Origin: an uncultured Methanobrevibacter sp.
Lineage (GTDB): Archaea; Methanobacteriota; Methanobacteria; Methanobacteriales; Methanobacteriaceae
Assembly: GCA_900314635.1 (NCBI GenBank)
Contig: OMVY01000009.1
Coordinates: forward strand, 50,132 to 114,131
DNA: 64,000 nt
Direction: 5' to 3'
The translations under genes were made by a program, and so were the position numbers. Below the pieces are notes generated by a model. The model ran no database searches and was not told the origin of the DNA. It worked only from the letters and a program-made list of their open reading frames with translations. Numbering within the stretch: position 1 is the first letter of the stretch; every line of letters begins with the position of its first letter. Of this stretch, positions 26,309-45,316 are shown piece by piece.

Positions 26309-29300
26309 TTATTTAAATTCTATTTTATCATTATTATTTATAAGTATCTCTTTACCAATCATAGCATCAACAACTGATGTAATCTTGTTTGATGTCTTTT
26401 TAGAGGTTGATTTAAAGCCTAAAGTCCTTGAAACTTGTTTTGCTAACTCTTTAACTTTTAAGGATTTTTTAAAGCTTAAAACTAAATCAATAGCTTTTTC
26501 AACTTCTAAATCAGAAATAAAATCCATATTGGGTTTTTCTCTTCTTCTAACTATGATTTGATCATAATCAGTAAATAAGAAGTCTTCTTCATTAATTATG
26601 TATCCTTTATTTTCATTGAATTTAATTGAATCCATAATTGTGCTTTTGAATTTAGTTCCTGCTCTTGACAGTCCGCAGCTTTCTCTTAACCGTCTAATAA
26701 CCATGTCTGCATGAATCGGACCCTCGATTGAAACTATGGTTTTAACTGTTTCATTTAATTTTTCAGTTTCATCATAGATTTCTGTTGCGTTTTTAATAGC
26801 TATGTCCTGAATTTCAACATAATCTTTTATATAATCTTCAATAGTTCCATCAGGAGTTAAACGTGTGTTATCCACCTTGCTTAATACATTAGCTTCCTCG
26901 ATTCTTGCAATTTCTCTTTCTTTATACTCCTGTCCGACATTATTTATTATGCTTTCCAATTCATCCTCATCCATTTCAGAGGATTTCTGAGAATTATCTG
27001 TGCTGATTTCCTCTAATTGGCCATTGGCAGTAATGTTGCTGAAATCATCATCAGAGTAATCTTTCATGCTTGGTTCATAGTTTATGTTTTCATTTGCAGA
27101 TGAGGAATTCACTGGTATGATCACATCGGTTTGGGAATCGCTGTAAAGTTCTGAGGAGTCAGGGTAAACTTCTGCATCTGGGATGTAAGTATCTTCACTA
27201 TATATTTCTGAATTATTATCTTCATAGAATGAATCCCCTGCTCTGTATTCATTATGTGCAGGTTCTATTGGAATAAATTCCTCTTGTGAGTAATCATCTG
27301 AAGTAAATATTGTGTCCTCTTTTGAATAATAATCTGGATTATGATTGTCTTGTTCTAATTTATCATATGAATCAACATTTTGGGTGTTATCCACTTTAAA
27401 GTACTCTTCATCATATAATTCCGGATTAAGTGAATTTATTTCCTTTTCCACATTAGAGAAGTCACTTATTGTTTTCATAATGGATTTTCTTTCCACAGGT
27501 TGATCATCTTCATAATCCTGAGGAATTTCCATATAATCTGGAATTTCTTCACCGTTGTCATTTACCCTGTCAATAACATATATCTTCTCTCTTTCAGTAG
27601 GATTCTCGATTTCCTTCATAGCATAATCATAGTATTGCATTCCATGTTTAATAGAAGTTAAAGTACCCATCAATCCGGTTTTATTGGAGTTGTTTTGCTG
27701 AGGCATTGCATTCTTCTTCAAGGCATTTTCAATACCTACAGCACTGTAATAGTAGTCATCAGATTCTGCCGGGGTTTGTGAATCCTGTTTATTTTGAGCT
27801 TGATTATTTGAATTATTTGAAGAGTCGTCATTTTTTCCATCATCTTCATCGGAAATCCCATATGTACTTTTATCATTTTCAGAATCTAGACTATTTTCCT
27901 CATCGGATTCATGTTTGTTGTTTGACTGATCCTGTTTGGCTTTTTCTTTTTCCCTTATCTCAGCACTAATCGGGATGATTGGTTCATCTTCATCATAATA
28001 TTCATCATCAATGGAAAAATCATCATTTTCAATATTTCTAGTTTTTTCAAAAGATTCTTCATTTATATCGTGATGAGAAGTTGGATTTTGTTTTTTGTTT
28101 TTTCTTCTTGGAGTGGTTAATATGCCTTTCATAAGTTCAGAATCCTTATCATTTGTGTTTTGATTTTCATTTTCTTCATTGTCAATGTTACTTAATAACT
28201 GATTTAATTCTTCATCGGAAATTATATTCTTTTCATCCTCTGACTCTTCGCTTAAGTCCTTGTTTTTATTTACTAATTTTTTATCCTTCTCAATTGTGCT
28301 ATCAATTTGAGAAAGGATAACTTCTGTTTCATTTTGATTGTTTTCTGCAGATTTTTTATTTTCTTTTAAAGAATTGTCAATTATCTCTTCTTTACTAATT
28401 GATTTATTAATATTTTTATTTTCTTTTAAAGAATTCTCAATTATCTCTTCTTTGCTAATTGATTTATTAATATTTTTATTTTCTTTTAAAGAATTGTCAA
28501 TTATTTTTTCTTTGTTTTTTGATTTATTAATATTTTTATTTTCTTTCAGTTTCTTATTTTCATTGTTTTTTGCCTTTTTATTTGCTTTTCTTCCTTGGGG
28601 ATTGATAGCTTCATCATTATCAATATCATTTTTCTCTCTAGGCCTGTTTAAATTCTCCTTATCTTTTGTAACTTTATTTCTATTTGGCCTAAAAATTTGA
28701 TAAACTCTATTTGCAACATTTTTAGTGCTGGATTTATTGTTTTTGTTTTCATTATAAATGAAACCATCATCAACATTTTTTAAATTGGAATCTACATCAT
28801 CTTTTTGTCTTGTTTTTTCATCTTTTTCTTTTTTATCCATTTTTGCTGGTGTATTTTTCTTATCCAAGTTATCATTGTCTTTTATATCTTCCGGGAAGTT
28901 TTTTAAGAATTTGTTTATTAAAGCATCTCTGGTTTCATCAGTTTTATCAAAGTTTTTGTTATCATTGGATGTTTCATCGATTAAAAACTCTGAATCTTCT
29001 GAATCTGCATTGTTGAAGTTATCTGCTCTGCTTTGACTGTAATCTTCAACCTTTTCCCTAATGCTGTCATCATCTAAAACTGTGTTGTATTCTTCGTTGT
29101 TTTCGGTTTCTTCTATTTCGGTTTCATTTTCATTTGATGTGTTGTAGTCTTCTTCATAGTTTTCATATTCACCAATATCATCATCAATTTCATTTTCTAA
29201 ACCAAAATCATTATTTAATTCATTTTCAGTTTCTTCTATGATTCCATCATCATTATCTTCTTCTGTGTCATTTTCTAAAGTTTCAGGGAAATCTTCATTT

Positions 29301-32300
29301 TCTGATGTTACGCTTAAATCATCTTCTTCTGTGTCATTTTCTAAACTTTCACTAAAATCTCCATCTTCTATGTCGATTTCTGTTTTTTCACTGAGATTTT
29401 CATCATCATGCACAGGGTCTATGATGATTGATTGAACCTTGTTAATTGGAATGGACTCTACTTCCCTGATTTTTGATTTTATCTCGCTTATCTTTGAGTT
29501 TATTTTTGTGGATTCAATATAATCAATCAGTTTTGATTGGGCAAGATCGCTGTTTCTATACCAGTCAGTAGACCAAAGGTGGTAGATATTCCAACCCAAT
29601 CCGGTTAAAACCTGTTCTCTAAGTCTGTCCCTGTCTCTAGCCACTTTTGATGAAGCGTAGTTCCTGCCGTCGCATTCGATTCCTAAAATATATTTTCCTG
29701 GATTTTCCTCATCGATAATAGCAAGATCCACTCTGAATCCAGCACATCCTATCTTTTCATCTACAGCATATCCATTTGAAACAAGGAAATCATAAATGGC
29801 ATCTTCAAATGGTGTATCTCCATAATCATCATTGTTTTCACTGTATTGGTTCAATTGAAGGTTTTCAGCATATTCCAAAAAGCTTTTCAATGATTTGACT
29901 CCAAATGGAGGATTTGCAGTCAGGTGGATGTCATGAGCTCTGAAATTAGAAAAGACTACGCATTTTTCCCTTGCTCTTGTAACAAGCACGTTCAAACGTC
30001 TCTCTCCTCCATCCTGGTTTAAAGGACCGAAGTTCAGTGACATTTTGCCTTCAGTATCGAATCCATATCCTATGCTTATCAGGATAACATCCCTTTCATC
30101 ACCTTGAATTGTCTCAAGGTTTTTAACGAAGAATCTTTCATTTTTCTTGTCTGAAAACAATGGTTCGAATTCTGGATGGGCCTTTCGCTCTATTTCAAGC
30201 TCTTCAAGAATGGCATTCTTCTGAGCTACTGAAAATGTTCCAACTCCAATGCTTTTCTTATCTCCCCATTTGTTGAAATGCCTGAATATCTCTCTAACCA
30301 CATCCTTGGCTTCCTTGTAGTTTGCAGAACTGTTTCCTCTGTCATATGCAGTATTTGGGTTGTAATGGAATTTAAGACCTAATTCTGGGTCGTTATGGGA
30401 AGGTGAAGGATATACAAGCAGCTCATTGTCATAGAACTCTCTGTTTGAAATGTTGATAAGAGATTCATGACGGCTTCTGTAGTGCCATTTAAGCATTTTA
30501 ACAGGGAATGACAACTTGCACAAATGAAGAATGCTCTCCATATCCAGTGCAGTAGCCACCTCTTCTCCGCTTTCATAATCTGTCATCTGATCAAAGAAGC
30601 TTGTAGGAGGCAATTGCTGAGTATCTCCCATTACAACAGCTGTTTTTCCTCTCATGAATGCTCCTAATGCATCCTCAGGTTTGACCTGACTTGCTTCGTC
30701 GAAAATTACCACATCAAACTGCAGTTTAGGGTTAGTCGGGTCAAGGTATTGTGCAATTGAAAGAGGGCTCATCATGAAGACAGGCTTGATTTTCTTAATG
30801 GTTCCTCCAGCCTTTTCAAGGAGAGTCCTGACAGGCAGATGTCCGCTTTTTCTTGTAAACTCCCCTGCCAGTATTTTAGCTTCCTCATCATCTGTATTGC
30901 CGTAGATTTTCGGAATCTGGCTGTTGAGCTTGTTGAATATTCTTTTCCTATTCAAGTTGATGATCTTTCTATCGAGATCCTTGAAGTCATGGATTCTGTT
31001 TTCATGCAATTCACCGATGAATGTGGATAAGACTTCATTTTGAGAGAATACTATATTGAGCAGGCTGTCTGCAAAATTACCGAGCACTAAAGGCTTGACA
31101 TCGTCTTTTTTAATGTTTCTTTTTTCAATGGTTTTTATGAAAATGGATGCTTGAGTATGCAGGCATGCCTTTTTGGTATTTGAATATTGTGACCATAAAT
31201 GCAGGCTTGAAAGCTGGCCTTTCCATTTGTTCAATTGCTTTTCCCACATTTCAAATGGAACTTCATTTGATTCCTTCTTAAATATCAGCTTGCTTCTTGG
31301 ATTCAGTTTGGATTCAAGTCTTGTGAGATTGTCATAGAAGATATCTCCCTTTTCAATGTAATCCTCAATTCCTGAGTTGATATTTACATGGAAAAGATCA
31401 TTGGAAAGCAGCTTGATTGTTGCCTCGCCGAATGTTCCGTTTGAAACGAGGTATGTGAACTTGTTCATCCAGCTGTTTACCTTCTGCAGTTCCTTGATAT
31501 TGGCTTTCTTGCTCCATAATGCTCCAAAATACCTGTATCCAAGTTCTTCATTATCTTGAAGGCTTTGTCTCACCTTGATGTTCTTTCGAACTTCAAGAAG
31601 ATCCTTAATGACTTGCCTGTCATCTGGAACAGGGCCCTTGTATAAACTCTCCAATTCCTCCTTATGGGTATTTCCACCAAACAGACGGAATTTCTTATGG
31701 GAATCCTTTTCAAGATCCCTTATTATGACGTCCAGATCTGCAATCAATAAGTAGTCTGTGAACTTGTCAAAGAGATGGGCTGTCTTTTGATATTCATTAA
31801 GCAGTTTGATAAGTGTCAAGGCTCGTTCTGGATTGTTGTACCATTCTCTGTTTAATAGTATTGAACTGTCAATCAAATTAACTGCATTGCTGTTCAATAT
31901 CTCCAGAGCTGTGATTGAATCGCGATATTCCTCTAATGTGTCAGGTACTTTTATTCCGTAAACTTCATTTACAACAGACATCTCGTATCTGAACTCATTC
32001 AATGAATCGAGGCTGTCGCGGATAAGCATTTCAATTTCCCTCAAATCCGCTGGAAGCAGGCTTTTTGGATTGCAATAACTCCAAGGATTATTTTTGGATA
32101 TTGTTCCATAAAGCTCGGCCAGATTCTCCAATGACAGTATGATGTCATCCAAGTCCTTTTCGCTAATTTCTTCAGGATTGTCGAACCTGACTAGAGGCAG
32201 CATTCTATTCTGCTTTTTAAAATAGCTTTCTGAAGACTCCTTCATTCCATATAGCTCGAAAGGAGTAAGTTTTACATTGGCAACAGGTTTGTGAATGACT

Positions 32301-33562
32301 TCTGCATAAGCATCAAGCTGGCTGCGCAATGTTTCAAGCTTTCTCAGTGTTTGATCAAGCTTTAAATCTCGTGAAGGCCTTACATTGGTGGCCTTTTGAA
32401 GATTTTTCAAGAATTTCTTGCGTCTTGTTTTATTGCTGTGGAGCTCAAGCACGAATTTTCCTAGCCCTACGCTGTCCAGTCTGCTTTTTACAACCTCAAG
32501 AGCAGCCATTTTTTCACTGACAAAGAGAACGGTCTTTCCTTCAGCTATTAACTCTGCTATCAGGTTTACAATGGTTTGTGACTTTCCTGTGCCTGGAGGA
32601 CCTTCTACAACTAAATTATGTCCTGCCTTCACGTTTTCTATAACTGCAATCTGTGATGAATCAGCATCCAGAACCTGATACATGGTTTTATAGTGAAGCT
32701 TCTCATCTACTTCATCTTCTTCAAAGGTATCATCGTAAACATTCTTTTTAGGATTGAAAATAGCTTGAATAAGTTCATTTGTTGTTAAATCTACATTATC
32801 CGCCCAGCTTTCAGGGTTTAAATCGTTATACATGATGAACTTGGTGAATGAAAAGAATCCGAGGGATACCTTTTCGGTGTTGATTTCCCAATTCTTTATA
32901 GGGGCAATGGCCTTCTTCACGCTGTCAAAGTAGATGTCTGTTGCTTCCAAAGCTGATGTCTGTTCGAATTTTGGAAGTTCTATGCCGTTTTCAAGAAGCT
33001 TTGCATGGAGGGATATGTTGTTTTGAATGTCCTCTCCTGTCCATGATAATGAGAAATTCTTTCCTACTGATTTTCTCTCGATTTCCACAGGTATGAGTAT
33101 CAAAGGAGCCAGATTTTTTTGTTTCGGCTTTTTCCTGTCGATCCATTCGATAAATCCTGCAGCAATGTATAATATATTATAACCCTGTTCTTGAACCATG
33201 GTTTTTGCTTGCTGGTCGATATAACGCAGTCTTTTTTCCAATTCAGGCTTTGAGAGATCGGTTTTCAGGTTCTTCTTGTCTTCAGGGGTGAGGAATCCTA
33301 ATTTATCTTCAATCATGTTCAGTGCTTTTGATCCTTCTTTGGATTCCCTGCCGGATAAGAAATGCATTCTTTTATTTTCTAAAACAAGGGTTTTATACAC
33401 ATCTCGAGGTCTTTGATTAGTAAATGAAAGGGTTCGATTTCTCTCCTTGAAATTAAGAAGAGGGTTTCTTAAACTTAAATCTAAAAGCTCTTTTCTTAGA
33501 TTTTTAAACTCCCTCTCGATGTTTATGTTTTCCTTTTTTGTAGGTGATTTATTAAACTGCAT
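26309..33562 (-). CDS. DUF4011 / superfamily-1 helicase / Vsr-like (MTES_1575-type) nuclease / DUF3320 protein (Hhe-type defence helicase-nuclease) with a roughly 880-aa acidic insertion
   Basis: LLDLSLRNPLLNF (DUF4011), GPPGTGKSQT, VIFDEASQ, GDTQQLPP, WHYRSR, IQGDERD, RRLNVLVTRAR, GIECDG and ARDRDRLR..VL..LGW..HLWSTDW motifs; C-terminal winged helices (EGPIH...). Confidence 0.88.
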   Translation of the reverse strand: MQFNKSPTKKENINIEREFKNLRKELLDLSLRNPLLNFKERNRTLSFTNQRPRDVYKTLVLENKRMHFLSGRESKEGSKALNMIEDKLGFLTPEDKKNLKTDLSKPELEKRLRYIDQQAKTMVQEQGYNILYIAAGFIEWIDRKKPKQKNLAPLILIPVEIERKSVGKNFSLSWTGEDIQNNISLHAKLLENGIELPKFEQTSALEATDIYFDSVKKAIAPIKNWEINTEKVSLGFFSFTKFIMYNDLNPESWADNVDLTTNELIQAIFNPKKNVYDDTFEEDEVDEKLHYKTMYQVLDADSSQIAVIENVKAGHNLVVEGPPGTGKSQTIVNLIAELIAEGKTVLFVSEKMAALEVVKSRLDSVGLGKFVLELHSNKTRRKKFLKNLQKATNVRPSRDLKLDQTLRKLETLRSQLDAYAEVIHKPVANVKLTPFELYGMKESSESYFKKQNRMLPLVRFDNPEEISEKDLDDIILSLENLAELYGTISKNNPWSYCNPKSLLPADLREIEMLIRDSLDSLNEFRYEMSVVNEVYGIKVPDTLEEYRDSITALEILNSNAVNLIDSSILLNREWYNNPERALTLIKLLNEYQKTAHLFDKFTDYLLIADLDVIIRDLEKDSHKKFRLFGGNTHKEELESLYKGPVPDDRQVIKDLLEVRKNIKVRQSLQDNEELGYRYFGALWSKKANIKELQKVNSWMNKFTYLVSNGTFGEATIKLLSNDLFHVNINSGIEDYIEKGDIFYDNLTRLESKLNPRSKLIFKKESNEVPFEMWEKQLNKWKGQLSSLHLWSQYSNTKKACLHTQASIFIKTIEKRNIKKDDVKPLVLGNFADSLLNIVFSQNEVLSTFIGELHENRIHDFKDLDRKIINLNRKRIFNKLNSQIPKIYGNTDDEEAKILAGEFTRKSGHLPVRTLLEKAGGTIKKIKPVFMMSPLSIAQYLDPTNPKLQFDVVIFDEASQVKPEDALGAFMRGKTAVVMGDTQQLPPTSFFDQMTDYESGEEVATALDMESILHLCKLSFPVKMLKWHYRSRHESLINISNREFYDNELLVYPSPSHNDPELGLKFHYNPNTAYDRGNSSANYKEAKDVVREIFRHFNKWGDKKSIGVGTFSVAQKNAILEELEIERKAHPEFEPLFSDKKNERFFVKNLETIQGDERDVILISIGYGFDTEGKMSLNFGPLNQDGGERRLNVLVTRAREKCVVFSNFRAHDIHLTANPPFGVKSLKSFLEYAENLQLNQYSENNDDYGDTPFEDAIYDFLVSNGYAVDEKIGCAGFRVDLAIIDEENPGKYILGIECDGRNYASSKVARDRDRLREQVLTGLGWNIYHLWSTDWYRNSDLAQSKLIDYIESTKINSKISEIKSKIREVESIPINKVQSIIIDPVHDDENLSEKTEIDIEDGDFSESLENDTEEDDLSVTSENEDFPETLENDTEEDNDDGIIEETENELNNDFGLENEIDDDIGEYENYEEDYNTSNENETEIEETENNEEYNTVLDDDSIREKVEDYSQSRADNFNNADSEDSEFLIDETSNDNKNFDKTDETRDALINKFLKNFPEDIKDNDNLDKKNTPAKMDKKEKDEKTRQKDDVDSNLKNVDDGFIYNENKNNKSSTKNVANRVYQIFRPNRNKVTKDKENLNRPREKNDIDNDEAINPQGRKANKKAKNNENKKLKENKNINKSKNKEKIIDNSLKENKNINKSISKEEIIENSLKENKNINKSISKEEIIDNSLKENKKSAENNQNETEVILSQIDSTIEKDKKLVNKNKDLSEESEDEKNIISDEELNQLLSNIDNEENENQNTNDKDSELMKGILTTPRRKNKKQNPTSHHDINEESFEKTRNIENDDFSIDDEYYDEDEPIIPISAEIREKEKAKQDQSNNKHESDEENSLDSENDKSTYGISDEDDGKNDDSSNNSNNQAQNKQDSQTPAESDDYYYSAVGIENALKKNAMPQQNNSNKTGLMGTLTSIKHGMQYYDYAMKEIENPTEREKIYVIDRVNDNGEEIPDYMEIPQDYEDDQPVERKSIMKTISDFSNVEKEINSLNPELYDEEYFKVDNTQNVDSYDKLEQDNHNPDYYSKEDTIFTSDDYSQEEFIPIEPAHNEYRAGDSFYEDNNSEIYSEDTYIPDAEVYPDSSELYSDSQTDVIIPVNSSSANENINYEPSMKDYSDDDFSNITANGQLEEISTDNSQKSSEMDEDELESIINNVGQEYKEREIARIEEANVLSKVDNTRLTPDGTIEDYIKDYVEIQDIAIKNATEIYDETEKLNETVKTIVSIEGPIHADMVIRRLRESCGLSRAGTKFKSTIMDSIKFNENKGYIINEEDFLFTDYDQIIVRRREKPNMDFISDLEVEKAIDLVLSFKKSLKVKELAKQVSRTLGFKSTSKKTSNKITSVVDAMIGKEILINNNDKIEFK
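28352..28547 (-). repeat. In-frame 60-bp tandem repeat (about 3.3 copies, SLKENKNINKSISKEEIIDN) inside the Hhe insertion
   Basis: Period-60 repeats visible on lines 28321-28501. Confidence 0.9.
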
Positions 33563-34092: not shown

Positions 34093-35139
34093 TTATTCTA
34101 AATCATTAATAGCTGCTACGATGAGTTCAATTGTTGATTCGATATCATCAAAGCTTGCTACGCTAACAGGTGTGTGAATGTATCTTGTAGGAACTGATAA
34201 TACTCCTGTTGGAATTCCCTCTTTTGCAAGGTGTATTGATGTTCCGTCGGTAGTTCCGCCGTCACTTACTTCAAGCTGGTAAGGGATTTCATATTTGTCT
34301 CCTGCATTTACCAGCATGTCCCTGATTACTTTAGGGGTCATGATTCCTCTGCCGCTTGCATCAATCAATACGACAGCAGGTCCTTTTCCTAAGACACATG
34401 GAGCTTCTTCCGGCTTGATTCCAGGGTGGTCTCCTGATAATGTGGTGTCAAGTGCAAATGCATAATCAGGATCTATTTTAAAAGCGGATACGCGTGCTCC
34501 CTTTAATCCTACTTCTTCCTGCACGGTTCCAACACCTACTACGGTAGCCTTGGAATCTACTCTTTTCAAGACTTCCATCATTACGTAACAGCCGATACGG
34601 TTATCCAAAGCCTTGCCCATAATGCGGTTGTTAGGGAAGCTTGCAAACCATGATTTAAAAGTGATTGCATCTCCAATGCTTACCATGGATTCGGCTTCTT
34701 CCTTGTCTTTTGCTCCTATGTCTATAAACATGTCGTCTGCAGGGATTACTTTCTTTCTCTCTTCAGGTTTGGTTACATGAGGTGGTTTTGAACCGATTAC
34801 ACCAGTAATCTCGCCATCTGCAGTATGGATTGTCACGCTTTGGTTCATGAGCATCTGGTCGTTTATTCCTCCGATAGTGGAAAATTTAATGAATCCTTTC
34901 TCATCAATGAATCTAACCATCAATCCTATTTCATCCATATGGGATGCAAGCATTACAGTAGGTCCTTTTTTAGAAGAACCCTTTTTAGTAGCGAATACAT
35001 TTCCCATGTGGTCAACTTCGATATCATCCGCTACGTCCTTTAATTCTCTTTTAATGATTTCTGCAATTTTCTCTTCATGGCTTGATATGCCTGGAGTCAT
35101 ACAGAGTTCTTCCATTAATTTAATTTTATCATCTGCCAT
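34093..35139 (-). CDS. M42 family metallopeptidase (TET/FrvX-like aminopeptidase)
   Basis: ASHMDEIG, KALDNRIGC, QEEVGLKGA, GGTTD and RYIHT motifs; AGGTG-N5-ATG. Confidence 0.93.
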   Translation of the reverse strand: MADDKIKLMEELCMTPGISSHEEKIAEIIKRELKDVADDIEVDHMGNVFATKKGSSKKGPTVMLASHMDEIGLMVRFIDEKGFIKFSTIGGINDQMLMNQSVTIHTADGEITGVIGSKPPHVTKPEERKKVIPADDMFIDIGAKDKEEAESMVSIGDAITFKSWFASFPNNRIMGKALDNRIGCYVMMEVLKRVDSKATVVGVGTVQEEVGLKGARVSAFKIDPDYAFALDTTLSGDHPGIKPEEAPCVLGKGPAVVLIDASGRGIMTPKVIRDMLVNAGDKYEIPYQLEVSDGGTTDGTSIHLAKEGIPTGVLSVPTRYIHTPVSVASFDDIESTIELIVAAINDLE

Positions 35140-35478
35140 TTTTTCACCTATGATATAATAATTAGTTTAAAAGTTTATATAATTTTCTTTTTGCTCTCTT
35201 TATAAACTTTTACTCTAATAGTTTTTATAATTTTTAAAAGGGGGTTTTATTTTTTTATTTATATATAATTTAAATAATCCTGATTATTAACAATGTTTTA
35301 AAATCTACCAATTTTGTTTAATACTAATGCTTATTAATAAGTATTTACATATATTTAATTATTATTAATAATCTATTAATATATTAAATTAATAATTGCT
35401 AGTAAATAATTTATTATGCAATTTTTTATAGTGATTTAGTTGGTTATTTAATAATTCAAGATTAAAATAAGTGAAATA

Positions 35479-36777
35479 ATGAAAGCGGCAGTTATTGGAT
35501 TGGGTGTAGAAGGAAAAAAGGCTTTAAACTCTCTTTTGAAATATGGATGGGATGTTTATGCCAGCGACTTGAATGTCAATATCAATATTGATGACCTGCC
35601 TATTTCACTTGGAAGTGCAGATGTTTCTCCTTCAGAGTCCAGAATAAGTTTTGCAAATGACAATCTTTCCATCGATCTTGGCTTTAACAAAAGGGAGGAA
35701 ATCGAATCCTGCGATGCAATTGCTTTAAGTCCGAGCATATGGGGCTCTGCTGTTAGCGAGGAATTCAAAAAAACAGGCAAGCTATTATGTGATGTTAAAA
35801 ACAAGCACCGCTCTATTTTTACTATTGGGGTTACAGGAACTAATGGAAAGACAACCACCACTTCCATGATAAGAGAGATATTGGAAAATGCAGGCTTGAA
35901 TGTTTTAACAGGAGGCAATGGAGGCGGAGGTTTCGATGGATATTACGATCTCATGCTTGATGCAAATGAAAACGACTATGATGTGCTTCTTATTGAAGTG
36001 TGTGACATGACTGTTGGTTTCTGTGATTACTGCTTCGACTTTGATATTGTGGCCCTTACAAATATGGGCAATGACCATATGGATGTCCATGGATCCATGG
36101 AGGGATACAGAGACTCTTTAAAGGATTTCTTTAAATGTAAGACAGTATTTCTCAATGACAACCAGATTTACAAGGATGAATTCGAAGATGTTGCAGAGCA
36201 TATGGTTGAATGCAGTCCGTCAGATTATGATTTAAAGCTTTTCGGCATATTCAACAAGAGAAATGCAGGCATTGCTGAAAATATCTGCAGGCATGTTGGC
36301 GAAAATTTCTTTAAAATCGATGAATCTATTATCCAAAGCACATTGGAAGATTTCACTCCTGTCAAAGGCCGTCTTGAAGTATTAAAATTGAATGATTGCA
36401 ATATCTACATAGGAAAAACAGACAATTCTGATGCATTTAAGACAGTTTTAAATGAAGTTGATTTTAAAACATTGTTTATTGGAACTCCAAGGCATGATGA
36501 AAGCCACAGATTTGAAATCCTTGATGAAGTAGTCAAATCAAAAGCCGAAGTTGTTGTTTTATTCCCAGGTCTTGAAGATACTTTAGACCAAGCGGTTTAC
36601 AGATTGCATGGTCTTGATTACTCAGGACGCATAGAACTTGCTAATAATCTTGATGAGATAATAGGATACGTGGCTGAATTTTCACATGAGCCTAATTTGT
36701 TTATTGGCGGAAATGGCCAGGAAAACATAATTAAAATAAGAGATAGGCTAGAGGAAATATGTAAAAACTGCAATTAA
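35479..36777 (+). CDS. Mur ligase family protein (MurD-like; pseudomurein peptide ligase)
   Basis: Rossmann-like AVIGLGVEG, P-loop GVTGTNGKTTT, LTNMGNDHMDVH and GRLEV motifs. Confidence 0.88.
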   Translation: MKAAVIGLGVEGKKALNSLLKYGWDVYASDLNVNINIDDLPISLGSADVSPSESRISFANDNLSIDLGFNKREEIESCDAIALSPSIWGSAVSEEFKKTGKLLCDVKNKHRSIFTIGVTGTNGKTTTTSMIREILENAGLNVLTGGNGGGGFDGYYDLMLDANENDYDVLLIEVCDMTVGFCDYCFDFDIVALTNMGNDHMDVHGSMEGYRDSLKDFFKCKTVFLNDNQIYKDEFEDVAEHMVECSPSDYDLKLFGIFNKRNAGIAENICRHVGENFFKIDESIIQSTLEDFTPVKGRLEVLKLNDCNIYIGKTDNSDAFKTVLNEVDFKTLFIGTPRHDESHRFEILDEVVKSKAEVVVLFPGLEDTLDQAVYRLHGLDYSGRIELANNLDEIIGYVAEFSHEPNLFIGGNGQENIIKIRDRLEEICKNCN

Positions 36778-36896
36778 ATAATCTATTAAATTACATAGGA
36801 AAATATTAAAAATGCAATTATATTAAAAATAATCAAATATCTTATCTGCGGATTATTTGATTAGTCATCATTATAAAAAAATAAATTTCAATCTAT

Positions 36897-36975
36897 AAAA
36901 TAATATTCAATCCATAAAATAATATTCAATTCAGAAAAATAATATTCATAAAATAATAATATTCAATTCAGAAAA
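36897..36975. repeat. Degenerate tandem repeat of AAAATAATATTCAAT (about 4 copies)
   Basis: Copies near 36897, 36916, 36936 and 36954, directly upstream of the VanW-like gene. Confidence 0.7.
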
Positions 36976-37006
36976 ATAAATAAATACGGTAAAGGAAGTG
37001 TTTTAG

Positions 37007-38251
37007 ATTAGTTCAAGAAGTTTAAGAGAAAGAAAATCATTTAAAATATTTATTGCATTGCTTGTAATAATTATAATTCTCATCCCTGTTACCCAGTCTA
37101 ACAACAACAGCGTTTCCTATGATGATATTTCAAAAATATCAAAATTTGATAACGGATCTACTGTTTATGCTGGAGATCAGGTAATAGATAAGAATAATGT
37201 TAATAAGTATCCTACTGTTTCAAATCTGGGATATTTGTTCGGTCAAATTGGCTCAGGGGATTTAATAACCTCATTTTTCTCAGTTGCCACTGGAGCTGTT
37301 CCTATTCCAGCAACAGATATAGTAGTTGGAAATGTGACAGATGGTGGAGTTGTTGAAGACTTTGATGGTCCGGGCCATATTGAAATTACAAATAATACGA
37401 TAAAGGTCATAGCTCCGGACGATTTGATTTATGGTTATCTTACTCCATATTATCAGGCAGTAAAGACTTCAACTGGTGTTGACATAGTAAATAATAAAAC
37501 AAATGAAACTGTCAGGCACATCAATGGAGATGACATCAATAATGATACATTGGATAGTGACAGAGTAAACACAGACCAGTTCCTCTATTGGTACAATAGA
37601 GCCGCTGAGGGTTCAACATACACAATGGAATACGGTCTTGCAGGTTTCTCAGACAATCGTTCCATGATTACTCCTGAGGAGCTAAAAGAGCAATTCCCAG
37701 ATGCTTACAATTATGCAATACATTATCCTAATGACTGTGCGGTTATAATATATCAAAACAACATTGAAGAAAAGCTTGTAAGCAGCACTTACACTTATCT
37801 TGATTCCCACCCTCAATATAATGATGCAAACAGGGAATATAATGCCAAGCAATTCGTAACTGCATGGAACGGCACTGTCATTCCTTCAGATGCTTATGGC
37901 TGTGGTAGGGAGGATGTTGGATTCAGCGCAGTTCCAGAATCAGAAGCAGAGTCCGGAATGGCAACACATGGAGTATGCCCTCCTGCAAGATCATTAAGGG
38001 AAGCTGTAATGGCTTTAGGCTTTTCATTACCTATAGGTATGGATAGCGGTCGTGATGCTGTGTTATACGGATACAGTCCTTCTACTGGAATAAAAATCCA
38101 CAATACACTTGATTACCCAATGAAAATCATCATGTGGACAGAAGGTTCAGGTGCAGGAATGGAGATTCATACTGAAATTTATGAATTAATTCCAAAAAGC
38201 GCGGTAAACAGCACAAATTCAACTAACTCAACTAGCAATACAACTTATTAA
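37007..38251 (+). CDS. Membrane-anchored secreted protein with C-terminal VanW-like domain (putative Cys transpeptidase)
   Basis: N-terminal TM anchor; WNGTVIP, HGVCPP..L..AVMALG, GRDA and HNTLDYPMKI align with VanW NGTVILP / GGVCQ..LY.A.L.AG / GRDA / NNTDYPI. Start proposed at ATT 37007, immediately after an in-frame TAG; track start is 37058. Confidence 0.72.
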   Translation: MSSRSLRERKSFKIFIALLVIIIILIPVTQSNNNSVSYDDISKISKFDNGSTVYAGDQVIDKNNVNKYPTVSNLGYLFGQIGSGDLITSFFSVATGAVPIPATDIVVGNVTDGGVVEDFDGPGHIEITNNTIKVIAPDDLIYGYLTPYYQAVKTSTGVDIVNNKTNETVRHINGDDINNDTLDSDRVNTDQFLYWYNRAAEGSTYTMEYGLAGFSDNRSMITPEELKEQFPDAYNYAIHYPNDCAVIIYQNNIEEKLVSSTYTYLDSHPQYNDANREYNAKQFVTAWNGTVIPSDAYGCGREDVGFSAVPESEAESGMATHGVCPPARSLREAVMALGFSLPIGMDSGRDAVLYGYSPSTGIKIHNTLDYPMKIIMWTEGSGAGMEIHTEIYELIPKSAVNSTNSTNSTSNTTY

Positions 38252-38310
38252 TTAATTCAATCATCGAATTAATTATTAGTTTTAAATCAATAATTAATTA
38301 AAGGATCAAT

Positions 38311-38967
38311 ATGTTAAAAGTTTCAGCAATAATTACTGCGGCAGGAAAAAACTCCAGAATGAGAAAAGATCAAATGGAGAGAAACATTCCGCTGCAGAAT
38401 AAATTAACACTTCCTTTTAATTCAAGCACAATAATAGAAACTACAATCGCAAATGTCTTGAATACTGACAATATCGATGAATGTATTGTGGTTCTTGGAC
38501 ATTTCAGTGATGAAATATTGCCTTTAATTAATAAAATTGATGATTCTAGACTTAAAATCATTGAAAATGACCCAGTTGATGTGGGTCTTTCTGTTTCTTT
38601 ATTGAATGGATTATCCTGTATAAATTCAGATATTGCCCTTTGTGTTACAGGCGACCAGCCTACAGTTAGCACTAAAACATTCAATTCAATTCTTGATTGC
38701 ATTTTAAAGTTTGAAAATCCCAAAAACACTATTTCTATTTTAAGACGCTTGAAAACTGGAAAGCTTGATACCGCTGAAGGTTTGGGAATGCCTTTTGCTG
38801 CAAGCAGGCTGGAATTGATTGATTATTTGAAGGGCAAGGATGACAATCTGAATCCTATCTTGAGAGAAATGTTTTCTGACGGCTTTGATTTTTATGGAAT
38901 CGAAGAAGATAATCCTCTTGAACTGATTAATATCAATACCTATTCTGAATATGAAAGCATTCTATAA
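38311..38967 (+). CDS. MobA/NTP_transf_3-like nucleotidyltransferase
   Basis: IITAAGKNSRM, VVLGH, GDQP and NINTYSEY motifs. Confidence 0.85.
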   Translation: MLKVSAIITAAGKNSRMRKDQMERNIPLQNKLTLPFNSSTIIETTIANVLNTDNIDECIVVLGHFSDEILPLINKIDDSRLKIIENDPVDVGLSVSLLNGLSCINSDIALCVTGDQPTVSTKTFNSILDCILKFENPKNTISILRRLKTGKLDTAEGLGMPFAASRLELIDYLKGKDDNLNPILREMFSDGFDFYGIEEDNPLELININTYSEYESIL

Positions 38968-39242
38968 AAATAGTTGCTAAGCATTTTTTAATTATTCTGC
39001 TCTTTTTAATTTGATTATTATATCATTTTTAAGCTTTTTTTTAGTAATTCTGCTTCTTTATATAGAGATTATATTTTTAAAAATAGCTATTTTTCAAATT
39101 AGTTAATATAATAAAATTTTAATTTGTTTTTTTCTTTAAATAAAATAAAAATAGCGGTTTTTCTAAAATTAGTTAATATGATAAAATTTTACTTGTTTTT
39201 TCTTTAATAAAATAAAAATAAAAAAAGAAAGGAATAAATTGA

Positions 39243-39992
39243 TTATTCCAAGTTTAAAATAATAGGGGCATGTTTAGAACTTTTAATATTATCTAGGATA
39301 TCTGATGATTTTACATTGTCTTTCAATGACTTGGATACAAAGAAGTAATCTACACGAGATCCTTCATTTGCTTCTTTTGCATCATTGTTCTTCCATGAAG
39401 AGTATTTCACATCATCATTGAATAATCTGTAGGCATCGCTGAAGCCTAAATCGATTATCTTGTCTATAACTTCTCTCTCTTCCTCTGTAAAGCTGACTTT
39501 AGTGTCCTTGTCGAAAATGTCTTTTTCTTCATGAGCGATATTGAAGTCACCTGCAATTATCATATTTTCATCTTTGTTTTGAGAGATGAAGTCAATCAAG
39601 CTGTTGTAGTAATCGAGTTTCTCAAGCATGTTTGCTTTCTTGCCTGTTCCAGCAGGAGCATAAATGTGAATTAAGGTAAAATCTTCAAATTCAAGAACTG
39701 ATGCTCTTCCTAATGCATCATCTGCTTCATTAAAGAATCTTTTAACAACCCTAGGAATTTTCTTGCAAAAAGTGGCAAGTCCTCCGGTTCTTTCGCTTTC
39801 ACCCTTGAGGAAATAGTAGTTGTATCCGCTTTCATCCAGGAATTTCTTATCCATTTTTTCAAAGCTTGCCTTGGTTTCCTGGAATAATATTATGTCCGGA
39901 TTCTCTTTCAAGATAGGGTCAATGTCCTTGTTTTTTATACGTGTTCTTAAACCATTTGCATTCCATGAAATAATTTTTGTTTGATTCATCAT
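39243..39992 (-). CDS. xth: Exodeoxyribonuclease III / AP endonuclease family protein with atypical catalytic residues
   Basis: SWNANG, LFQETK, AGDFNIAH and RVDYFFVS motifs; C-terminal SKH instead of SDH. Confidence 0.9.
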   Translation of the reverse strand: MMNQTKIISWNANGLRTRIKNKDIDPILKENPDIILFQETKASFEKMDKKFLDESGYNYYFLKGESERTGGLATFCKKIPRVVKRFFNEADDALGRASVLEFEDFTLIHIYAPAGTGKKANMLEKLDYYNSLIDFISQNKDENMIIAGDFNIAHEEKDIFDKDTKVSFTEEEREVIDKIIDLGFSDAYRLFNDDVKYSSWKNNDAKEANEGSRVDYFFVSKSLKDNVKSSDILDNIKSSKHAPIILNLE

Positions 39993-41206: not shown

Positions 41207-42565
41207 TTATGGAATTGTAATATTATTAAATTCGTTTTTGTGCTTGTTGCAGAATGTTCTAAAATCGCATGCACTGCATGTTCTCTTTTCAGCTTCCGCA
41301 TTCCATGCATGCTTTATTGGAATTCCATTGCTTTCCTTGAGGATTGACTCTTCGATTTTCTCAACAACGCTGTCGAATTCACTCAATGCATTTTCAATCC
41401 TTTCGGAATCCTTGGATATCGGTATTATCCTTATAGACCTGTCTATTTTAAACTTGTCAGAGAGGTCATTTAAAATATGGTATTCAGATTCAGGATTCCA
41501 GTCAAAGAGAATCTCCTCATCCTTCTTGCTTATGGAGACATCTGTGTTATTGTTTTCCAAATCTGTTTTGATAGCCATCAAATCCTCATTGGATGGAACA
41601 AGCTCATTCAAATAAAAGATTATTCCAGCTACTACATGCTTGTTGTCATTCTGTTGGTTTCTAAGCCATGCATAGGTCAGTATCTGCTGTTCATGGTGTT
41701 TCCAGTTTTTTGAATCAAGGCTCGGCCTTTTCATGCCTTTGTAGTCTGTGATGATTTCAAAACTATCCTGCTGCTTTATCTCATTATCGAATCCATTCAT
41801 GTTTTCAATGAATTCTGAATTATTGAACAAGTACTCGTATATCATGTTTGACTTGAAAAAATCATAATAGCTATCCAGATTTGATTGAGGACTTATTTCA
41901 AGTTTGGATTGCTGTGTTTTTTTCTCGTGACTGTTCTTTCTGTTTTTAAAATAGCTTATATCAAGATAGCTCAATACATCCAGAACTCCATTAATGGTGT
42001 AGCTGTCTGATCTTTTTTCAAAATCATCAAGATCTGGCATATCGCGTATCCCTTTAATCATCATTTCAGTATTGCTTATCAATGGAAAGAGATGAGGGCC
42101 CCATATATTTATTGCAGCCTCTGCTCTTGCACTGTAAAGCATTTTTCGAGGATTGTATTCATCCATTCTTTCCTCATCGATATTTATTGATGAATCATAA
42201 TAGTTTCGAGGAGCCACCAATCCTCTGGTTTTAAGCCTGTTTTCAATCATTTCCTCAATAGGCCTGATGTCAGTCATCCAGTTCCATGGAAATTTCAATG
42301 ATTTCTGATTTTTATATGGGCTGTCATCTGGAATGTCTTGAGGGTCAATGATGCTGTTTTCATCTAAGTATTCCCATTTGAGATAGGATTCCTCCATGAC
42401 TCCATGGATGAACTCTCCAAACCACAATTGAATTGGTGTTGATGGTGGAAGTGTTCCCCTGTTTTGGTATCTGTATTGCAGATTGCATGTTAAAAAGGAA
42501 AGCAAATCTCCAGTCAGGCTGTATTCTGGAACGATATACTCTTTGGATTTAGTAGATAATTTCAT
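41207..42565 (-). CDS. PD-(D/E)XK nuclease of the AddB/Cas4-like Fe-S 'staple' type
   Basis: YSLTGDLLSFLTC, FGEFIH, GVLDVL, TDYKG and QILTYAW motifs; C-terminal CSACDFRTFC (1+3 Cys arrangement). Confidence 0.82.
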   Translation of the reverse strand: MKLSTKSKEYIVPEYSLTGDLLSFLTCNLQYRYQNRGTLPPSTPIQLWFGEFIHGVMEESYLKWEYLDENSIIDPQDIPDDSPYKNQKSLKFPWNWMTDIRPIEEMIENRLKTRGLVAPRNYYDSSINIDEERMDEYNPRKMLYSARAEAAINIWGPHLFPLISNTEMMIKGIRDMPDLDDFEKRSDSYTINGVLDVLSYLDISYFKNRKNSHEKKTQQSKLEISPQSNLDSYYDFFKSNMIYEYLFNNSEFIENMNGFDNEIKQQDSFEIITDYKGMKRPSLDSKNWKHHEQQILTYAWLRNQQNDNKHVVAGIIFYLNELVPSNEDLMAIKTDLENNNTDVSISKKDEEILFDWNPESEYHILNDLSDKFKIDRSIRIIPISKDSERIENALSEFDSVVEKIEESILKESNGIPIKHAWNAEAEKRTCSACDFRTFCNKHKNEFNNITIP

Positions 42566-42655: not shown

Positions 42656-45316
42656 TTAAATTAAATAGATTTCATTAAAACCTATGAATTCTTCATCTCT
42701 ATTCCATCCTAATGCAATGTTTGGAATATACATCTGTTTTTCCTTAGACTTATATCCATCTAGTGATGGAATTAAACCAACTAGGAGTAAAACATCTTGT
42801 GCCCTTGAGAATGCAACGAAGTATAATCTGGTTAAATCATCAAATGCCCTGTCTCTTGGATCTCTTGTATTTTTTCCAAGGGGACTGAGATTTCTTATCT
42901 TGTCTTCCACTACTGAGAATTGATTTACTTTCTTTGGGAATCTCAAATGGGCTTCATTGGCTGTGTTTTTAGTGAATTTGGACCCGACATCGACAATGGT
43001 TAGCGGGAATTCCAATCCCTTTGACTGGTGGATGGACATAATATTCAATCGATTTTGTGGAAATGTTTCAAATAGGTTCTCATCCAGTTTCACATTTCCA
43101 GATGCTATAGGTATGAATATATTCCATAGTGCTTCACTGATTGATTCAAATTCACTCTCCTCGCTTGAAAAATCAATATTTGCAGAATATTTATTGAAAA
43201 ATCCATTCTGAGTGATGGTCTGGGCAATTGTTTCCAGATAGACTATTCCTTCAATGTCATCCTGGAAGAACTTGATGCTTTCATCATTTTCATTATCCTT
43301 GCTCTTTTTTCCAGGCTTCTTATCATATTCTATCCATGTAACCAGCTTATATGTAAGTTCTATAAGGCTTGCCTGCTTCGGCCAGTTTTCCCTGTTGAAA
43401 GGCTGTCTTGATTGCCAGTGCTCTACGAATTCCTCCAGATTTACTGGAGATACAGGATCAGGATAGGTTTTGATGAACGCTTGTGCTGTTTTTCTCCATC
43501 TTGTAAGATATTTTACAGCGGTTTTAGGCATTTTAGTATTAAGATTCTGGACTCTGCTTTGAGGGTCTATGCATTCAAGTATCAAACCGCATAGGATTGC
43601 CACAGGCTCTATTGTATGCAATGCCTGTCCTCTAGGATTGAATACTTCAATCTGTGGATTTTTGGACTTTTCCAGTCTTTTTCTTAACAAATAAGTGAAA
43701 GTGTGATTTTCTTTTTTGGTCATTTCCTGAGGAGAATATGTTAAAAACGCTATATCATTTATTGAACCTGACTCCTCGTCCAGTTTCAGTTTGATTCTTT
43801 TTGAATTGTTTTTAGATTGCCTTAATCTTTTTTCCATCTGAGGGTTTTTAGAACCTATGATCTTCATGTTTTGAGGATTGCTTAGGTTTTTGATGCCGTC
43901 CCTTGTCATTATTCTCTTTACATTGTATTTAACTTCCTTTCCCTTGGCAAGGTCCTGGATAAGGCGTGACAAGTCCATAGCCAGTTGTTGTTGATTTTTT
44001 CTGAACATCCCCAATACAGGAATGCTTTTTTCATCAGATGCGATTCCATTATCTTCTGTGGGTTTTTCTCTTTTTTCGTCCTTGTTTTCAGGATGAACTA
44101 TCTTCGGTTTTTCTTTTACTCTGGCGGATTGGTATTTATCATCTATTTCAGCATATTCATTGCACAAGTCAATAATGCTTTTAGTTGAGCGGTAATTTGT
44201 TTTCAAATTGATTTCCTCGACATCAATTCCGATTTCAGATTTAGCCCGCTCTTTGAATTGTGTGAAGAGGTCAACTGTCGCCCCTCTGAATCTGTACAAT
44301 GACTGGTCGTCATCTCCTACTACTGTAATGCTTCCGCCATTTGATATTGCTGCTTTAGCTATTTCAAAGTAAATGCTCTCCTGAAGCAGGTTGGTGTCTT
44401 GATATTCGTCTACAAGGATGATTTTCATGTCTTTGAGGAATATATCAAGCTTTCCTGATTTCAATCTTGAGAAGAACTCGTTTTCAAGCATGGTGAAGTC
44501 GTAGATATTTCTATCCTTCAATGCATTGATGTATTCGGTGATGATGTTCAAGGTCTTTTTCCTTCCCAGAAATAGAGGATCGTTCTTGTCCTTGTCTATC
44601 TCCCCTTCCAATTCGCCAATGTCCACTCTGTTGTAATAGATGACATCTTTAATCTTCAGCAGAATATCCGCCATTATTGAGATGTTGGATACCTTTGGAA
44701 TTTTTTCCTGGTTTGATTGTATGCCTGTTATTTCTGCAAGATATTCCTGAAGGGCTTCATTCTGGAACCGGTCATCCTTTAGAAGGCCTGCATTTATCAT
44801 AGCTGAATGCGCTGCTGCTTCTTCTATCAGAACAGGCTGATTTGTGCCTGCATCCCTATGGATTCTAAGCAGCTCTTCTGCCACGCTGTCTATTGTTCCT
44901 GTTACTATTTGATTCAAATCAAGCTTTTGAACCTTTTTTGTAAACTTCAATACATAACTGCTGTCGCTGAAAGGGGAGTCTTCGCTGAATTCATCATTGA
45001 ATGACTTTTCCATATATGTTGAGACAATTTCCTTTTTAATTTCGCTTCCCCAGCTTAAAATACGTGACATCAGTTCCTTGGCCGCTTTTTTTGTAAATGT
45101 GGTGGCAAGTATCTCACTTGGTGCGATGTCATCTACAAAAATAAATTTCAATATTTTCAAAACCATTACTGTTGTCTTTCCGGAACCAGGTCCTGCAACT
45201 ATGAAAAGTGACTGGTCCGCTCTGGAAGAAATAGCTGAATTCTGGTCTTGGTTGGATGAGATGTCCCTTTCCAATGTCTTGACTACAATTTCCTTGAATT
45301 CTTCATAGCTTATCAT
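42656..45316 (-). CDS. UvrD/REP-family superfamily-1 helicase
   Basis: AGPGSGKT, TFTKKAA, VDEYQD, GDDDQSLYRFRG, NYRS, IHQSKGLEFP and RLYFVAFSRA motifs. Confidence 0.92.
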   Translation of the reverse strand: MISYEEFKEIVVKTLERDISSNQDQNSAISSRADQSLFIVAGPGSGKTTVMVLKILKFIFVDDIAPSEILATTFTKKAAKELMSRILSWGSEIKKEIVSTYMEKSFNDEFSEDSPFSDSSYVLKFTKKVQKLDLNQIVTGTIDSVAEELLRIHRDAGTNQPVLIEEAAAHSAMINAGLLKDDRFQNEALQEYLAEITGIQSNQEKIPKVSNISIMADILLKIKDVIYYNRVDIGELEGEIDKDKNDPLFLGRKKTLNIITEYINALKDRNIYDFTMLENEFFSRLKSGKLDIFLKDMKIILVDEYQDTNLLQESIYFEIAKAAISNGGSITVVGDDDQSLYRFRGATVDLFTQFKERAKSEIGIDVEEINLKTNYRSTKSIIDLCNEYAEIDDKYQSARVKEKPKIVHPENKDEKREKPTEDNGIASDEKSIPVLGMFRKNQQQLAMDLSRLIQDLAKGKEVKYNVKRIMTRDGIKNLSNPQNMKIIGSKNPQMEKRLRQSKNNSKRIKLKLDEESGSINDIAFLTYSPQEMTKKENHTFTYLLRKRLEKSKNPQIEVFNPRGQALHTIEPVAILCGLILECIDPQSRVQNLNTKMPKTAVKYLTRWRKTAQAFIKTYPDPVSPVNLEEFVEHWQSRQPFNRENWPKQASLIELTYKLVTWIEYDKKPGKKSKDNENDESIKFFQDDIEGIVYLETIAQTITQNGFFNKYSANIDFSSEESEFESISEALWNIFIPIASGNVKLDENLFETFPQNRLNIMSIHQSKGLEFPLTIVDVGSKFTKNTANEAHLRFPKKVNQFSVVEDKIRNLSPLGKNTRDPRDRAFDDLTRLYFVAFSRAQDVLLLVGLIPSLDGYKSKEKQMYIPNIALGWNRDEEFIGFNEIYLI

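Follow-up and report, generated by a model that had tools for sequence, protein, structure and literature searches.

Which protein joins neighbouring stem peptides in pseudomurein, and might its gene lie among those for precursor synthesis? To our knowledge, no enzyme has been shown to cross-link this polymer. The question is raised here by the three-gene locus pMurD2-pmurA-pmurB, found at positions 35479-38967 of a 64,000-nucleotide stretch of DNA from an uncultured Methanobrevibacter sp. (contig OMVY01000009.1; this whole stretch is referred to below as the window), and in particular by its middle gene, pmurA. Cross-linking of pseudomurein comprises removal of a terminal residue and formation of a Glu-to-Lys bond, and enzymes of the penicillin-binding protein (PBP) type are absent from the hosts (PMC2812497, PMC10117817). 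For PmurA, another role has been put forward: Subedi et al. suggested phosphoryl transfer for the family member Mfer335 (PMC10117817), and Cha et al. (2026), who named the protein PMurA, predicted glutamate phosphorylation and left it among the 'unknown proteins' (PMC12996149).

A preliminary description of this DNA, made from the letters alone, had proposed that the middle gene encodes an archaeal VanW-like pseudomurein transpeptidase, and had ranked this as the window's strongest candidate for an undescribed system. The idea of an undescribed system was not borne out, as the module is the published cluster 1/B and NCBIfam already names pMurD2, PmurA and PmurB (PMC10117817, PMC11915815, PMC12996149). 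The transpeptidase proposal fared better: remote homology to VanW, an invariant Cys, a predicted outward face and synteny with precursor genes speak for it, while the active site is non-standard and transpeptidation itself is what we infer from these features. In Clostridioides difficile, the VanW domains of the membrane-anchored proteins Ldt4 and Ldt5 are Cys-dependent transpeptidases (PMC11348318). Our literature search found no paper connecting VanW with pseudomurein; the link to VanW, the outside location predicted for the protein and the hypothesis of function that follows appear to be new.

A remote VanW homologue at the C-terminus of PmurA

The C-terminal ~125 residues of PmurA are, as judged from profile comparisons, a remote homologue of VanW, with a likeness beyond chance. 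Profiles were built from the VanW-B gene of an Enterococcus faecium vanB plasmid (L001; Pfam VanW E 2e-37), from ten VanW genes of diverse sequence that are likewise carried on plasmids, and from two collections of VanW homologues. Against a narrow VanW-B-type profile, hhalign returned only a weak match for PmurA (probability 3.8%, P 0.011). Against 205 diverse VanW domains, the probability rose to 86% (P 5e-6, score 39.4-39.9), with 107 columns aligned collinearly over VanW positions 9-137 of 159 and the PmurA Cys placed on the VanW Cys. Comparison of full-length alignments (A1 against A3) gave a probability of 69% (E 4.3e-5), a third VanW alignment (A4) gave 74% (E 2.8e-5), and single-profile HMMER searches linked the two families in both directions at P ~2e-4. 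The signal thus strengthened with the diversity of the VanW profile, from P 0.011 to 5e-6, and became convincing once plasmid-borne and YoaR-type sequences were added. The preliminary description had aligned positions 37829-38140 with VanW; the whole-domain match, at 37802-38194, contains that segment and sets the Cys of HGVC on the Cys of GG(V/I)CQ. An upstream extension of the A1-A3 alignment was disregarded owing to its low confidence.

Several controls were applied to this match. Two hundred column-shuffled nulls had a mean score of 12.9 (standard deviation 2.7, maximum 23) against an observed score of 39.9, about 10 standard deviations above; 200 block-shuffled nulls reached at most 30.5, so that none of the 400 shuffles attained the observed value. 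A reversed-profile control scored 11.2, and the N-terminal region of PmurA gave nothing against VanW. Five positions are conserved in both families (N279, P293, C324, A351 and N366 of PmurA, matching N, P, C, A and N of VanW). With single-sequence searches, the window's PmurA matched the Pfam VanW model neither at E<=1 nor in the NCBIfam scan. At E<=10, four of 75 family members matched it (best E 0.014), and scanning ten further relatives likewise brought no more than incomplete matches under the threshold. One such match (P0074; E 0.02, 14.8 bits) covers profile positions 1-32 only, which is the first motif. Among the weak Pfam matches of the relatives, VanW is the sole recurrent family besides PDR_CDR, whose matches are taken as membrane-segment similarity.

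Predicted structure

The AlphaFold2 model of PmurA, based on an alignment of 75 sequences, has a predicted local distance difference test score (pLDDT) of 90 and a predicted template modelling score of 0.81. In this model, Cys324 lies at the N-terminus of a 12-residue helix (residues 307-318 when numbered from the TTG codon discussed below). A model of a true VanW protein (P0310) was obtained with a pLDDT of 88.7. Both follow the same order of elements, namely strand, helix, strand, strand, an insert, a helix starting from the Cys, and three strands. Secondary structure assigned by DSSP agreed at 67% of 123 positions along the hhalign alignment, as compared with 35% on average and 56% at most in shifted registers. 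PmurA lacks the helix-plus-hairpin insert of VanW and most of the loop that follows the Cys helix. Foldseek searches of the PmurA model against PDB and BFVD returned no match. Because the true VanW model was equally without a match in PDB, this null result is uninformative about VanW likeness; the VanW paper likewise describes a fold without solved relatives.

The region preceding the domain bears the invariant residues D216 and R218 in an FSDxR motif. The candidate that it corresponds to PG_binding_4 was rejected, since the N-terminal two thirds of PmurA show no similarity to the PG_binding_4 region found ahead of VanW domains. Separately, residues ~100-140 (positions 37300-37420; pattern GG..E.F.GPG.I...N..I.V) gave weak multi-repeat matches to NHL-repeat proteins (P0182, P0186, P0190 and P0195), which fall on profile positions 90-137 of PmurA. 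This segment may be a single NHL-blade-like motif.

Conservation, distribution and synteny of the PmurA family

A word-indexed search provided 163 relatives of PmurA, and conservation was assessed in an alignment of 84 sequences reaching down to 27% identity. Residues G50, G96, P122, D216, R218, R276, N279, W287 and N288, together with H321, G322, C324, P325, R328, R331, P342, G344 and N366, are invariant in all 84 (numbered in the 414-residue protein). The most conserved block is HG-x-CP-x-x-R-x-x-R, in which the H, G, C, P and both R residues occur in 84 of 84 sequences. Conservation of the Cys that the preliminary description had compared with VanW was confirmed throughout, including in the most distant full-length homologue (P0134, encoded at 5001-6179 of L092/L093), which is 27% identical and retains HGCCPPAR. 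The other two Cys residues of the window's PmurA are not conserved.

A profile search with HMMER, run exhaustively over 1.84 billion representative proteins, returned 79 clusters, consisting of family members, fragments and a few NHL-repeat proteins; no sequence bridging PmurA to VanW was found among them. Scanning one genome per GTDB species yielded 189 relatives, of which the best 80 were kept. All 80 belong to Methanobacteriales except one in a bin mislabelled Bacteroidaceae. The preliminary description had expected the family in Methanobacteriales and Methanopyrus: the former is seen directly among the best 80, and Methanopyrales, not seen by name there, are covered by the published finding that the Mfer335 family is confined to and universal in pseudomurein methanogens, Methanopyrales included (PMC10117817). 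The mislabelled contig (L054, CAVDAS010000079.1), from a 'Bacteroidaceae bacterium' metagenome-assembled genome (MAG), carries a typical Methanobrevibacter pmurA-pmurB pair, and its assignment most likely reflects binning contamination.

Synteny with Mur ligases, also anticipated in the preliminary description, was recovered in most loci: a Mur ligase gene lies immediately 5' of pmurA in 43 of 64, and pmurB immediately 3' in 68 of 70. In Methanobacterium, pMurD2 is located ~3.2 kb upstream of pmurA. The Methanobrevibacter MAG RGIG2528 has a pMurD2-pmurA pair on each of two contigs (L015 and L018), encoding PmurA proteins 61% and 60% identical to that of the window; these reflect two strains binned together or else a duplicated locus.

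A non-canonical start codon and a predicted membrane anchor

The mechanically derived open reading frame of pmurA begins at TTG 37058, inside a hydrophobic run, and specifies 397 residues; the same start is found in 397-residue database entries. An alternative start, ATT at 37007, directly follows an in-frame TAG and gives a product of 414 residues. The N-termini of homologues, M-(S)SRSL-x-KRKSF-KIFIALxVII, match exactly the window's translation from this ATT. Sixteen related Methanobrevibacter species also have ATT at the corresponding position, which is filled by ATG, GTG or TTG in other relatives; ATT recurs in three independent assemblies of the species to which the window belongs. A Shine-Dalgarno-like sequence, AAGGAAGTG, is present at 36992-37000, and both this sequence and its spacing to the start are kept in relatives. 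As read from these alignments, pmurA is translated from a conserved non-canonical ATT at 37007 that gene callers overlooked. They choose TTG 37058 instead, and the hydrophobic anchor segment is therefore cut in half.

Read from ATT, residues 11-29 form the sole strongly hydrophobic 19-residue window of the protein (Kyte-Doolittle 2.7), preceded by four Lys or Arg residues within the first 12. The sequence contains 13 N-x-S/T sequons, against 5.3 expected. Four of them lie in the C-terminal tail, which is disordered in the model (pLDDT <50 at residues 385-397) and is variable or missing in homologues. On account of the K/R-rich start, the single hydrophobic segment, the excess of sequons and the N/S/T-rich tail, PmurA is predicted to be an N-in, membrane-anchored (or secreted) protein with ~385 residues outside the cell. 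Subedi et al. also noted a membrane insertion segment in Mfer335 (PMC10117817). The preliminary description had called the middle protein membrane-anchored, which holds for the ATT start and fails for the TTG start, where the segment is halved.

This topology bears on the published proposal that PmurA is a cytoplasmic kinase or nucleoside triphosphatase (NTPase) phosphorylating glutamate, upstream of PmurB. PmurA adjoins PmurB, which acts on the Glu starter, and the pathway's kinase step is without an assigned enzyme (PMC10117817). Moreover, recombinant M. ruminantium PMurA turned ATP to ADP and AMP; Glu-phosphate, by contrast, was undetected in the same published assay (PMC12996149). A search of PmurA for a Walker A or other NTPase motif found none, and the P-loop is absent; no NTPase or kinase family matched PmurA at E<=1 in Pfam or NCBIfam, nor the 75 family members at E<=10. 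The predicted N-terminal anchor, with its basic and hydrophobic residues, and the sequon-rich body argue against the cytoplasmic glutamate kinase of that proposal, and an ATP-grasp protein of cluster 2 provides an alternative candidate for the kinase step (PMC10117817). We regard a kinase role as very improbable.

Active site, points of doubt and alternative roles

The triad proposed for VanW in the VanW paper is Cys-His-Asp, and in the VanW alignments made here the His and the Asp are both invariant. Comparison with PmurA shows that its active site is remodelled and that the VanW triad was not inherited. PmurA has its own invariant residues around the Cys, namely a His three residues before it and, within the Cys helix, Arg residues at +4 and +7; the Asp and Arg of its N-terminal region are invariant as well. 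A VanW-annotated protein from the Rhodococcus oxybenzonivorans plasmid pRB29 (L009, 385-2103) reads GGGISQF, with Ser where the catalytic Cys would stand; it is a naturally occurring Ser variant or else a VanW that is inactive.

A number of observations weigh against the view of PmurA as a VanW-derived cross-linking enzyme. First, the homology is distant: the Pfam VanW gathering score (27 bits) is never reached among the 75 members, and the hhalign probabilities of 69-86% stay under the 95% usually held safe. Second, catalytic features depart from those of VanW. The His of VanW, H136 in P0310, belongs to a stretch of nine residues without a PmurA counterpart; the invariant Asp (D157, before FKN) falls on Gly in PmurA (T-G-I-K-I-x-N), followed by an Asn invariant in both families; and GGG and CQ of VanW become HG and CP. 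A replacement dyad or triad drawn from H321 and D216 is conjecture. Third, VanW proteins themselves vary in activity, as three of seven from species other than C. difficile had L,D-transpeptidase (LDT) activity and Cys-to-Ala mutants kept carboxypeptidase activity (PMC11348318). Fourth, Lupo et al. predicted neither a signal peptide nor a transmembrane segment for the PmurA orthologous group (PMC11915815), which mis-called starts like that of pmurA might explain. Fifth, Cha et al. observed hydrolysis of ATP by recombinant PMurA (PMC12996149). Sixth, the distant homologue P0134 is flanked by a TP_methylase gene on one side and by genes for a radical-SAM MoaA-like protein and then alanyl-tRNA synthetase on the other, with neither Mur ligase nor PmurB genes in its neighbourhood. 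Finally, the literature already holds cross-linking candidates, as yet untested, in exported transglutaminases, which 'probably' perform this step (PMC2812497, PMC11915815).

The missing His and Asp, together with the sub-threshold Pfam scores and the hhalign probabilities, which are not decisive, leave room for a non-catalytic interpretation, in which the likeness to VanW is convergent or due to chance, or the domain has lost catalysis, and PmurA serves as a scaffold, wall-binding or sensing subunit of an export or assembly machinery with a structural Cys. The Rhodococcus protein with Ser for Cys indicates that the fold tolerates loss of the thiol. Chance is opposed by the shuffled nulls and the agreement in secondary structure. 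As for a structural Cys, the invariance of HG-x-CP-x-x-R-x-x-R in a family whose members share 27-60% identity is typical of an active site, and the extracytoplasmic Cys stands at a helix N-terminus without a conserved disulfide partner. We consider this interpretation improbable.

Compared with the VanW-type LDTs (PF04294; Ldt4/Ldt5, YoaR-like proteins and VanW-B), PmurA shares collinearity over the whole domain, a Cys at the N-terminus of the central helix, the order of structural elements, a membrane-anchored extracytoplasmic architecture (predicted for PmurA) and a wall-peptide context (PMC11348318). It differs in its sub-threshold Pfam scores, the deletion of the His loop and beta-hairpin, the changes of Asp to Gly and of GGG-x-CQ to HG-x-CP, an N-terminal partner other than PG_binding_4, its archaeal host and, presumably, a substrate consisting of all-L stems instead of an L,D bond. 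A second bacterial comparison is offered by the YkuD-type L,D-transpeptidases, which use a thiol nucleophile and a thioacyl-enzyme, as proposed for PmurA. Their motif, (S/T)-H-G-C-x-(R/N), resembles (S/T)-H-G-V-C-P-P-A-R of PmurA. The YkuD fold is different, and YkuD was absent from all Pfam scans made, so the likeness of motifs is probably convergent or coincidental.

The same homology, predicted location and conserved Cys would also suit an extracellular VanW-like thiol enzyme that trims the terminal residue of stems as a carboxypeptidase, cuts cross-links as an endopeptidase while the cell grows, or anchors proteins or other polymers in the wall, with exported transglutaminases doing the cross-linking. 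An altered reaction fits the remodelled active site. Carboxypeptidase, endopeptidase and protein-anchoring functions all occur among VanW and YkuD enzymes, and LDT activity is absent from several VanW proteins (PMC11348318, PMC12729407). Transglutaminases are, in addition, preferred in the literature for the Glu-Lys bond (PMC2812497, PMC11915815). Like the transglutaminase-like proteins of pseudomurein methanogens and the phage endoisopeptidases PeiW and PeiP, PmurA would be a Cys enzyme acting on pseudomurein isopeptide bonds outside the cell, as these do or are proposed to do (PMC2812497, PMC11915815, PMC4592898). They have an unrelated fold. Genes for transglutaminases lie apart from the clustered pseudomurein genes and have many paralogues, many of them adhesin-like, whereas pmurA is clustered and universal in pseudomurein methanogens (PMC10117817, PMC11915815). 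Universality and a position in the precursor operon suit a core synthetic step better than trimming (PMC10117817).

Analogy points the same way. In the bacterial dcw cluster, ftsI (PBP3), a gene for a membrane-anchored extracytoplasmic transpeptidase, lies amid mur ligase genes. There is no homology between FtsI and PmurA, and PBPs, which use Ser, are absent in these archaea (PMC10117817). On balance, a trimming or remodelling enzyme, the chief rival to the explanation given below, appears unlikely, if by no means negligible.

PmurA as a candidate cross-linking enzyme

Taken as a whole, the explanation we favour, with a confidence that falls a little short of even, is a known operon whose PmurA is an anchored, outside-facing, VanW-like thiol enzyme forming stem cross-links. 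That PmurA is a thiol acyl-transferase acting on pseudomurein stems is plausible from its sequence. The fully specified version, a pseudomurein cross-linking transpeptidase that is an all-L-specific offshoot of VanW with a rebuilt Cys-His(-Asp) centre, is put forward tentatively and is, on its own, rather doubtful. A transpeptidase role is favoured because the cross-link calls for loss of a terminal residue and then acyl transfer to a Lys amino group, a reaction of the kind that Cys enzymes of the LDT type perform, and because the gene is universal and locked into the operon, which suggests a core step. Catalysis, the substrate, and cross-linking rather than trimming are in each case what we infer. 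An outward face, a VanW-type domain and an invariant Cys would together shift PmurA from the beginning of the pathway to its final step.

In the proposed mechanism, pMurD2 and PmurB would act in the cytoplasm, the former ligating the stem peptide and the latter serving as a nucleotidyltransferase on the UDP-Glu starter. Outside the cell, Cys324, at its helix N-terminus, would attack the peptide bond preceding the terminal residue of a donor stem, assisted by His321 and possibly Asp216. The terminal residue would leave and a thioacyl-enzyme would arise, to be resolved by the Lys amino group of a neighbouring stem, yielding the cross-link. Resolution by water instead of Lys would make the protein a carboxypeptidase. 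Arg328 and Arg331, which follow the Cys by one and two turns of the helix, would bind free carboxylates on the stem, which is rich in Glu.

Locus organization and transcription

The three open reading frames, described as co-oriented at the outset and confirmed to be so, are flanked on both sides by opposite-strand genes, an M42 aminopeptidase (34093-35139) and an exodeoxyribonuclease III (39243-39992). The G+C content of the window is 27-44% (AT-rich). Assignment of the first gene to the Mur ligases and of the third to the nucleotidyltransferases was upheld by matches above cut-off. pMurD2 scored 600.5 bits against NF053647 (cut-off 550) over protein positions 1-424, matched Pfam Mur_ligase_M at E 2.7e-20 and contains the P-loop GVTGTNGKTTT. 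PmurB scored 323 bits against the Mfer334 model NF053639 (cut-off 260) and matched Pfam NTP_transf_3 at E 6.8e-14; activity has been reported for its M. ruminantium orthologue (PMC12996149). PmurA scored 452.7 bits against NF053640 (cut-off 400), its residues 2-379 spanning profile positions 2-378 of 378, and had no Pfam match at E<=1. Coordinates are listed in Table 1.

Table 1 Features of the pMurD2-pmurA-pmurB locus in window coordinates; PmurA residues are numbered from the ATT start unless stated otherwise
Feature	Position	Strand	Basis
Upstream leader of transcribed unit	35383..35478	+	Metatranscriptome contig starts
pMurD2, pseudomurein stem-peptide ligase, Mur ligase family, 432 aa	35479..36777	+	NCBIfam NF053647, Pfam
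AT-rich intergenic spacer	36778..37006	+	Between pMurD2 and pmurA
pmurA (Mfer335 family), 414 aa from ATT	37007..38251	+	NCBIfam NF053640, conserved start
Predicted N-terminal membrane anchor or signal segment, residues 11-29	37037..37093	+	Hydrophobicity, charge
Predicted N-terminal extracytoplasmic region, residues 30-265	37094..37801	+	AlphaFold2 model, invariant residues
Divergent VanW-like domain, residues 266-396 of 414 (249-379 in TTG numbering)	37802..38194	+	hhalign
Motif H321-G-V-C324-P-P-A-R328-S-L-R331 (HGVCPPARSLR)	37967..37999	+	Conservation; Cys324 codon 37976-37978
Asn/Ser/Thr-rich C-terminal tail (NSTNSTNSTSNTTY)	38195..38248	+	Model confidence, sequons
pmurB (Mfer334 family), MobA/MurU-like nucleotidyltransferase, 218 aa	38311..38967	+	NCBIfam NF053639, Pfam

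The locus is the already published pseudomurein gene cluster named cluster 1 by Subedi in 2021 (PMC10117817) and cluster B by Lupo in 2025 (PMC11915815), a conserved pMurD2-PmurA-PmurB operon, present here in a Methanobrevibacter of the bovine rumen. The order is identical in M. ruminantium, where MRU_RS05610, MRU_RS05605 and MRU_RS05600 encode PMurD2, PMurA and PMurB. The window's protein is a full-length member of the Mfer335/PmurA family, placed between pMurD2 and PmurB just as its counterparts in M. ruminantium and M. fervidus are, and shows no structural difference from its relatives; the VanW-like C-terminal domain, the ATT start and the predicted outside body are the new elements.

The locus is contained in bovine rumen metatranscriptomes. 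In four runs, contigs start at 35383-35423, which is 56-96 nt 5' of the pMurD2 ATG, and end at 38997-39089. In three of these runs they span the gap from pMurD2 to pmurA, and in several they span that from pmurA to pmurB. These contigs are consistent with a single transcription unit of ~3.6 kb, and are read as evidence of presence only, since DNA carry-over is possible. A promoter is presumed to lie in 35383-35478 or just upstream.

The spacer between pMurD2 and pmurA contains direct repeats of 19-25 nt (AATAATATTCAATYCA... and AATAATATTCAATYCAGAAAAATAA, the latter in three copies). Its length varies among the rumen metatranscriptome contigs: one run lacks 19 nt at 36887, and three runs carry an additional A after 36977. 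The spacer may be a regulatory or promoter region.

Other features of the window

Upstream of the locus, a 2417-residue open reading frame on the minus strand (26309-33562) combines DUF4011, AAA_11/AAA_12 (an SF1 helicase), an MTES_1575 restriction-endonuclease-like domain and DUF3320. The protein is split by a low-complexity insert of ~900 residues, which is acidic, rich in Asn and Lys, and contains KENKNINKS repeats. Farther upstream, at 19593-24520, two proteins of 730 and 750 residues consist of Big_3_5, Big_1 and CarboxypepD_reg Ig-like repeats, as in the adhesin-like surface proteins of Methanobrevibacter, and one of them also has a DUF4015 glycosyl-hydrolase-like domain.

Downstream, the minus strand encodes a PD-(D/E)XK nuclease (41207-42565) and a UvrD/AddA-like helicase (42656-45316), and the plus strand encodes, at 45757-48594, a DEAH helicase belonging to the 'helicase/secretion neighbourhood' type and, at 49014-50084, a protein resembling RNase_H_2 / PolB exonucleases. 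This run of DNA-processing genes from 41207 may be a repair or defence island.

Implications

For users of sequence databases, the mis-called start strips the membrane anchor from many PmurA entries. If the proposed function is correct, the shared ancestry of murein and pseudomurein would reach extracellular assembly, as it does the cytoplasmic Mur ligases and MraY. The VanW superfamily would then extend to Archaea and to L,L-peptide chemistry. PmurA would also represent an outside-facing, thiol-dependent target found only in Methanobacteriales and Methanopyrales, which would be relevant to the mitigation of rumen methane.

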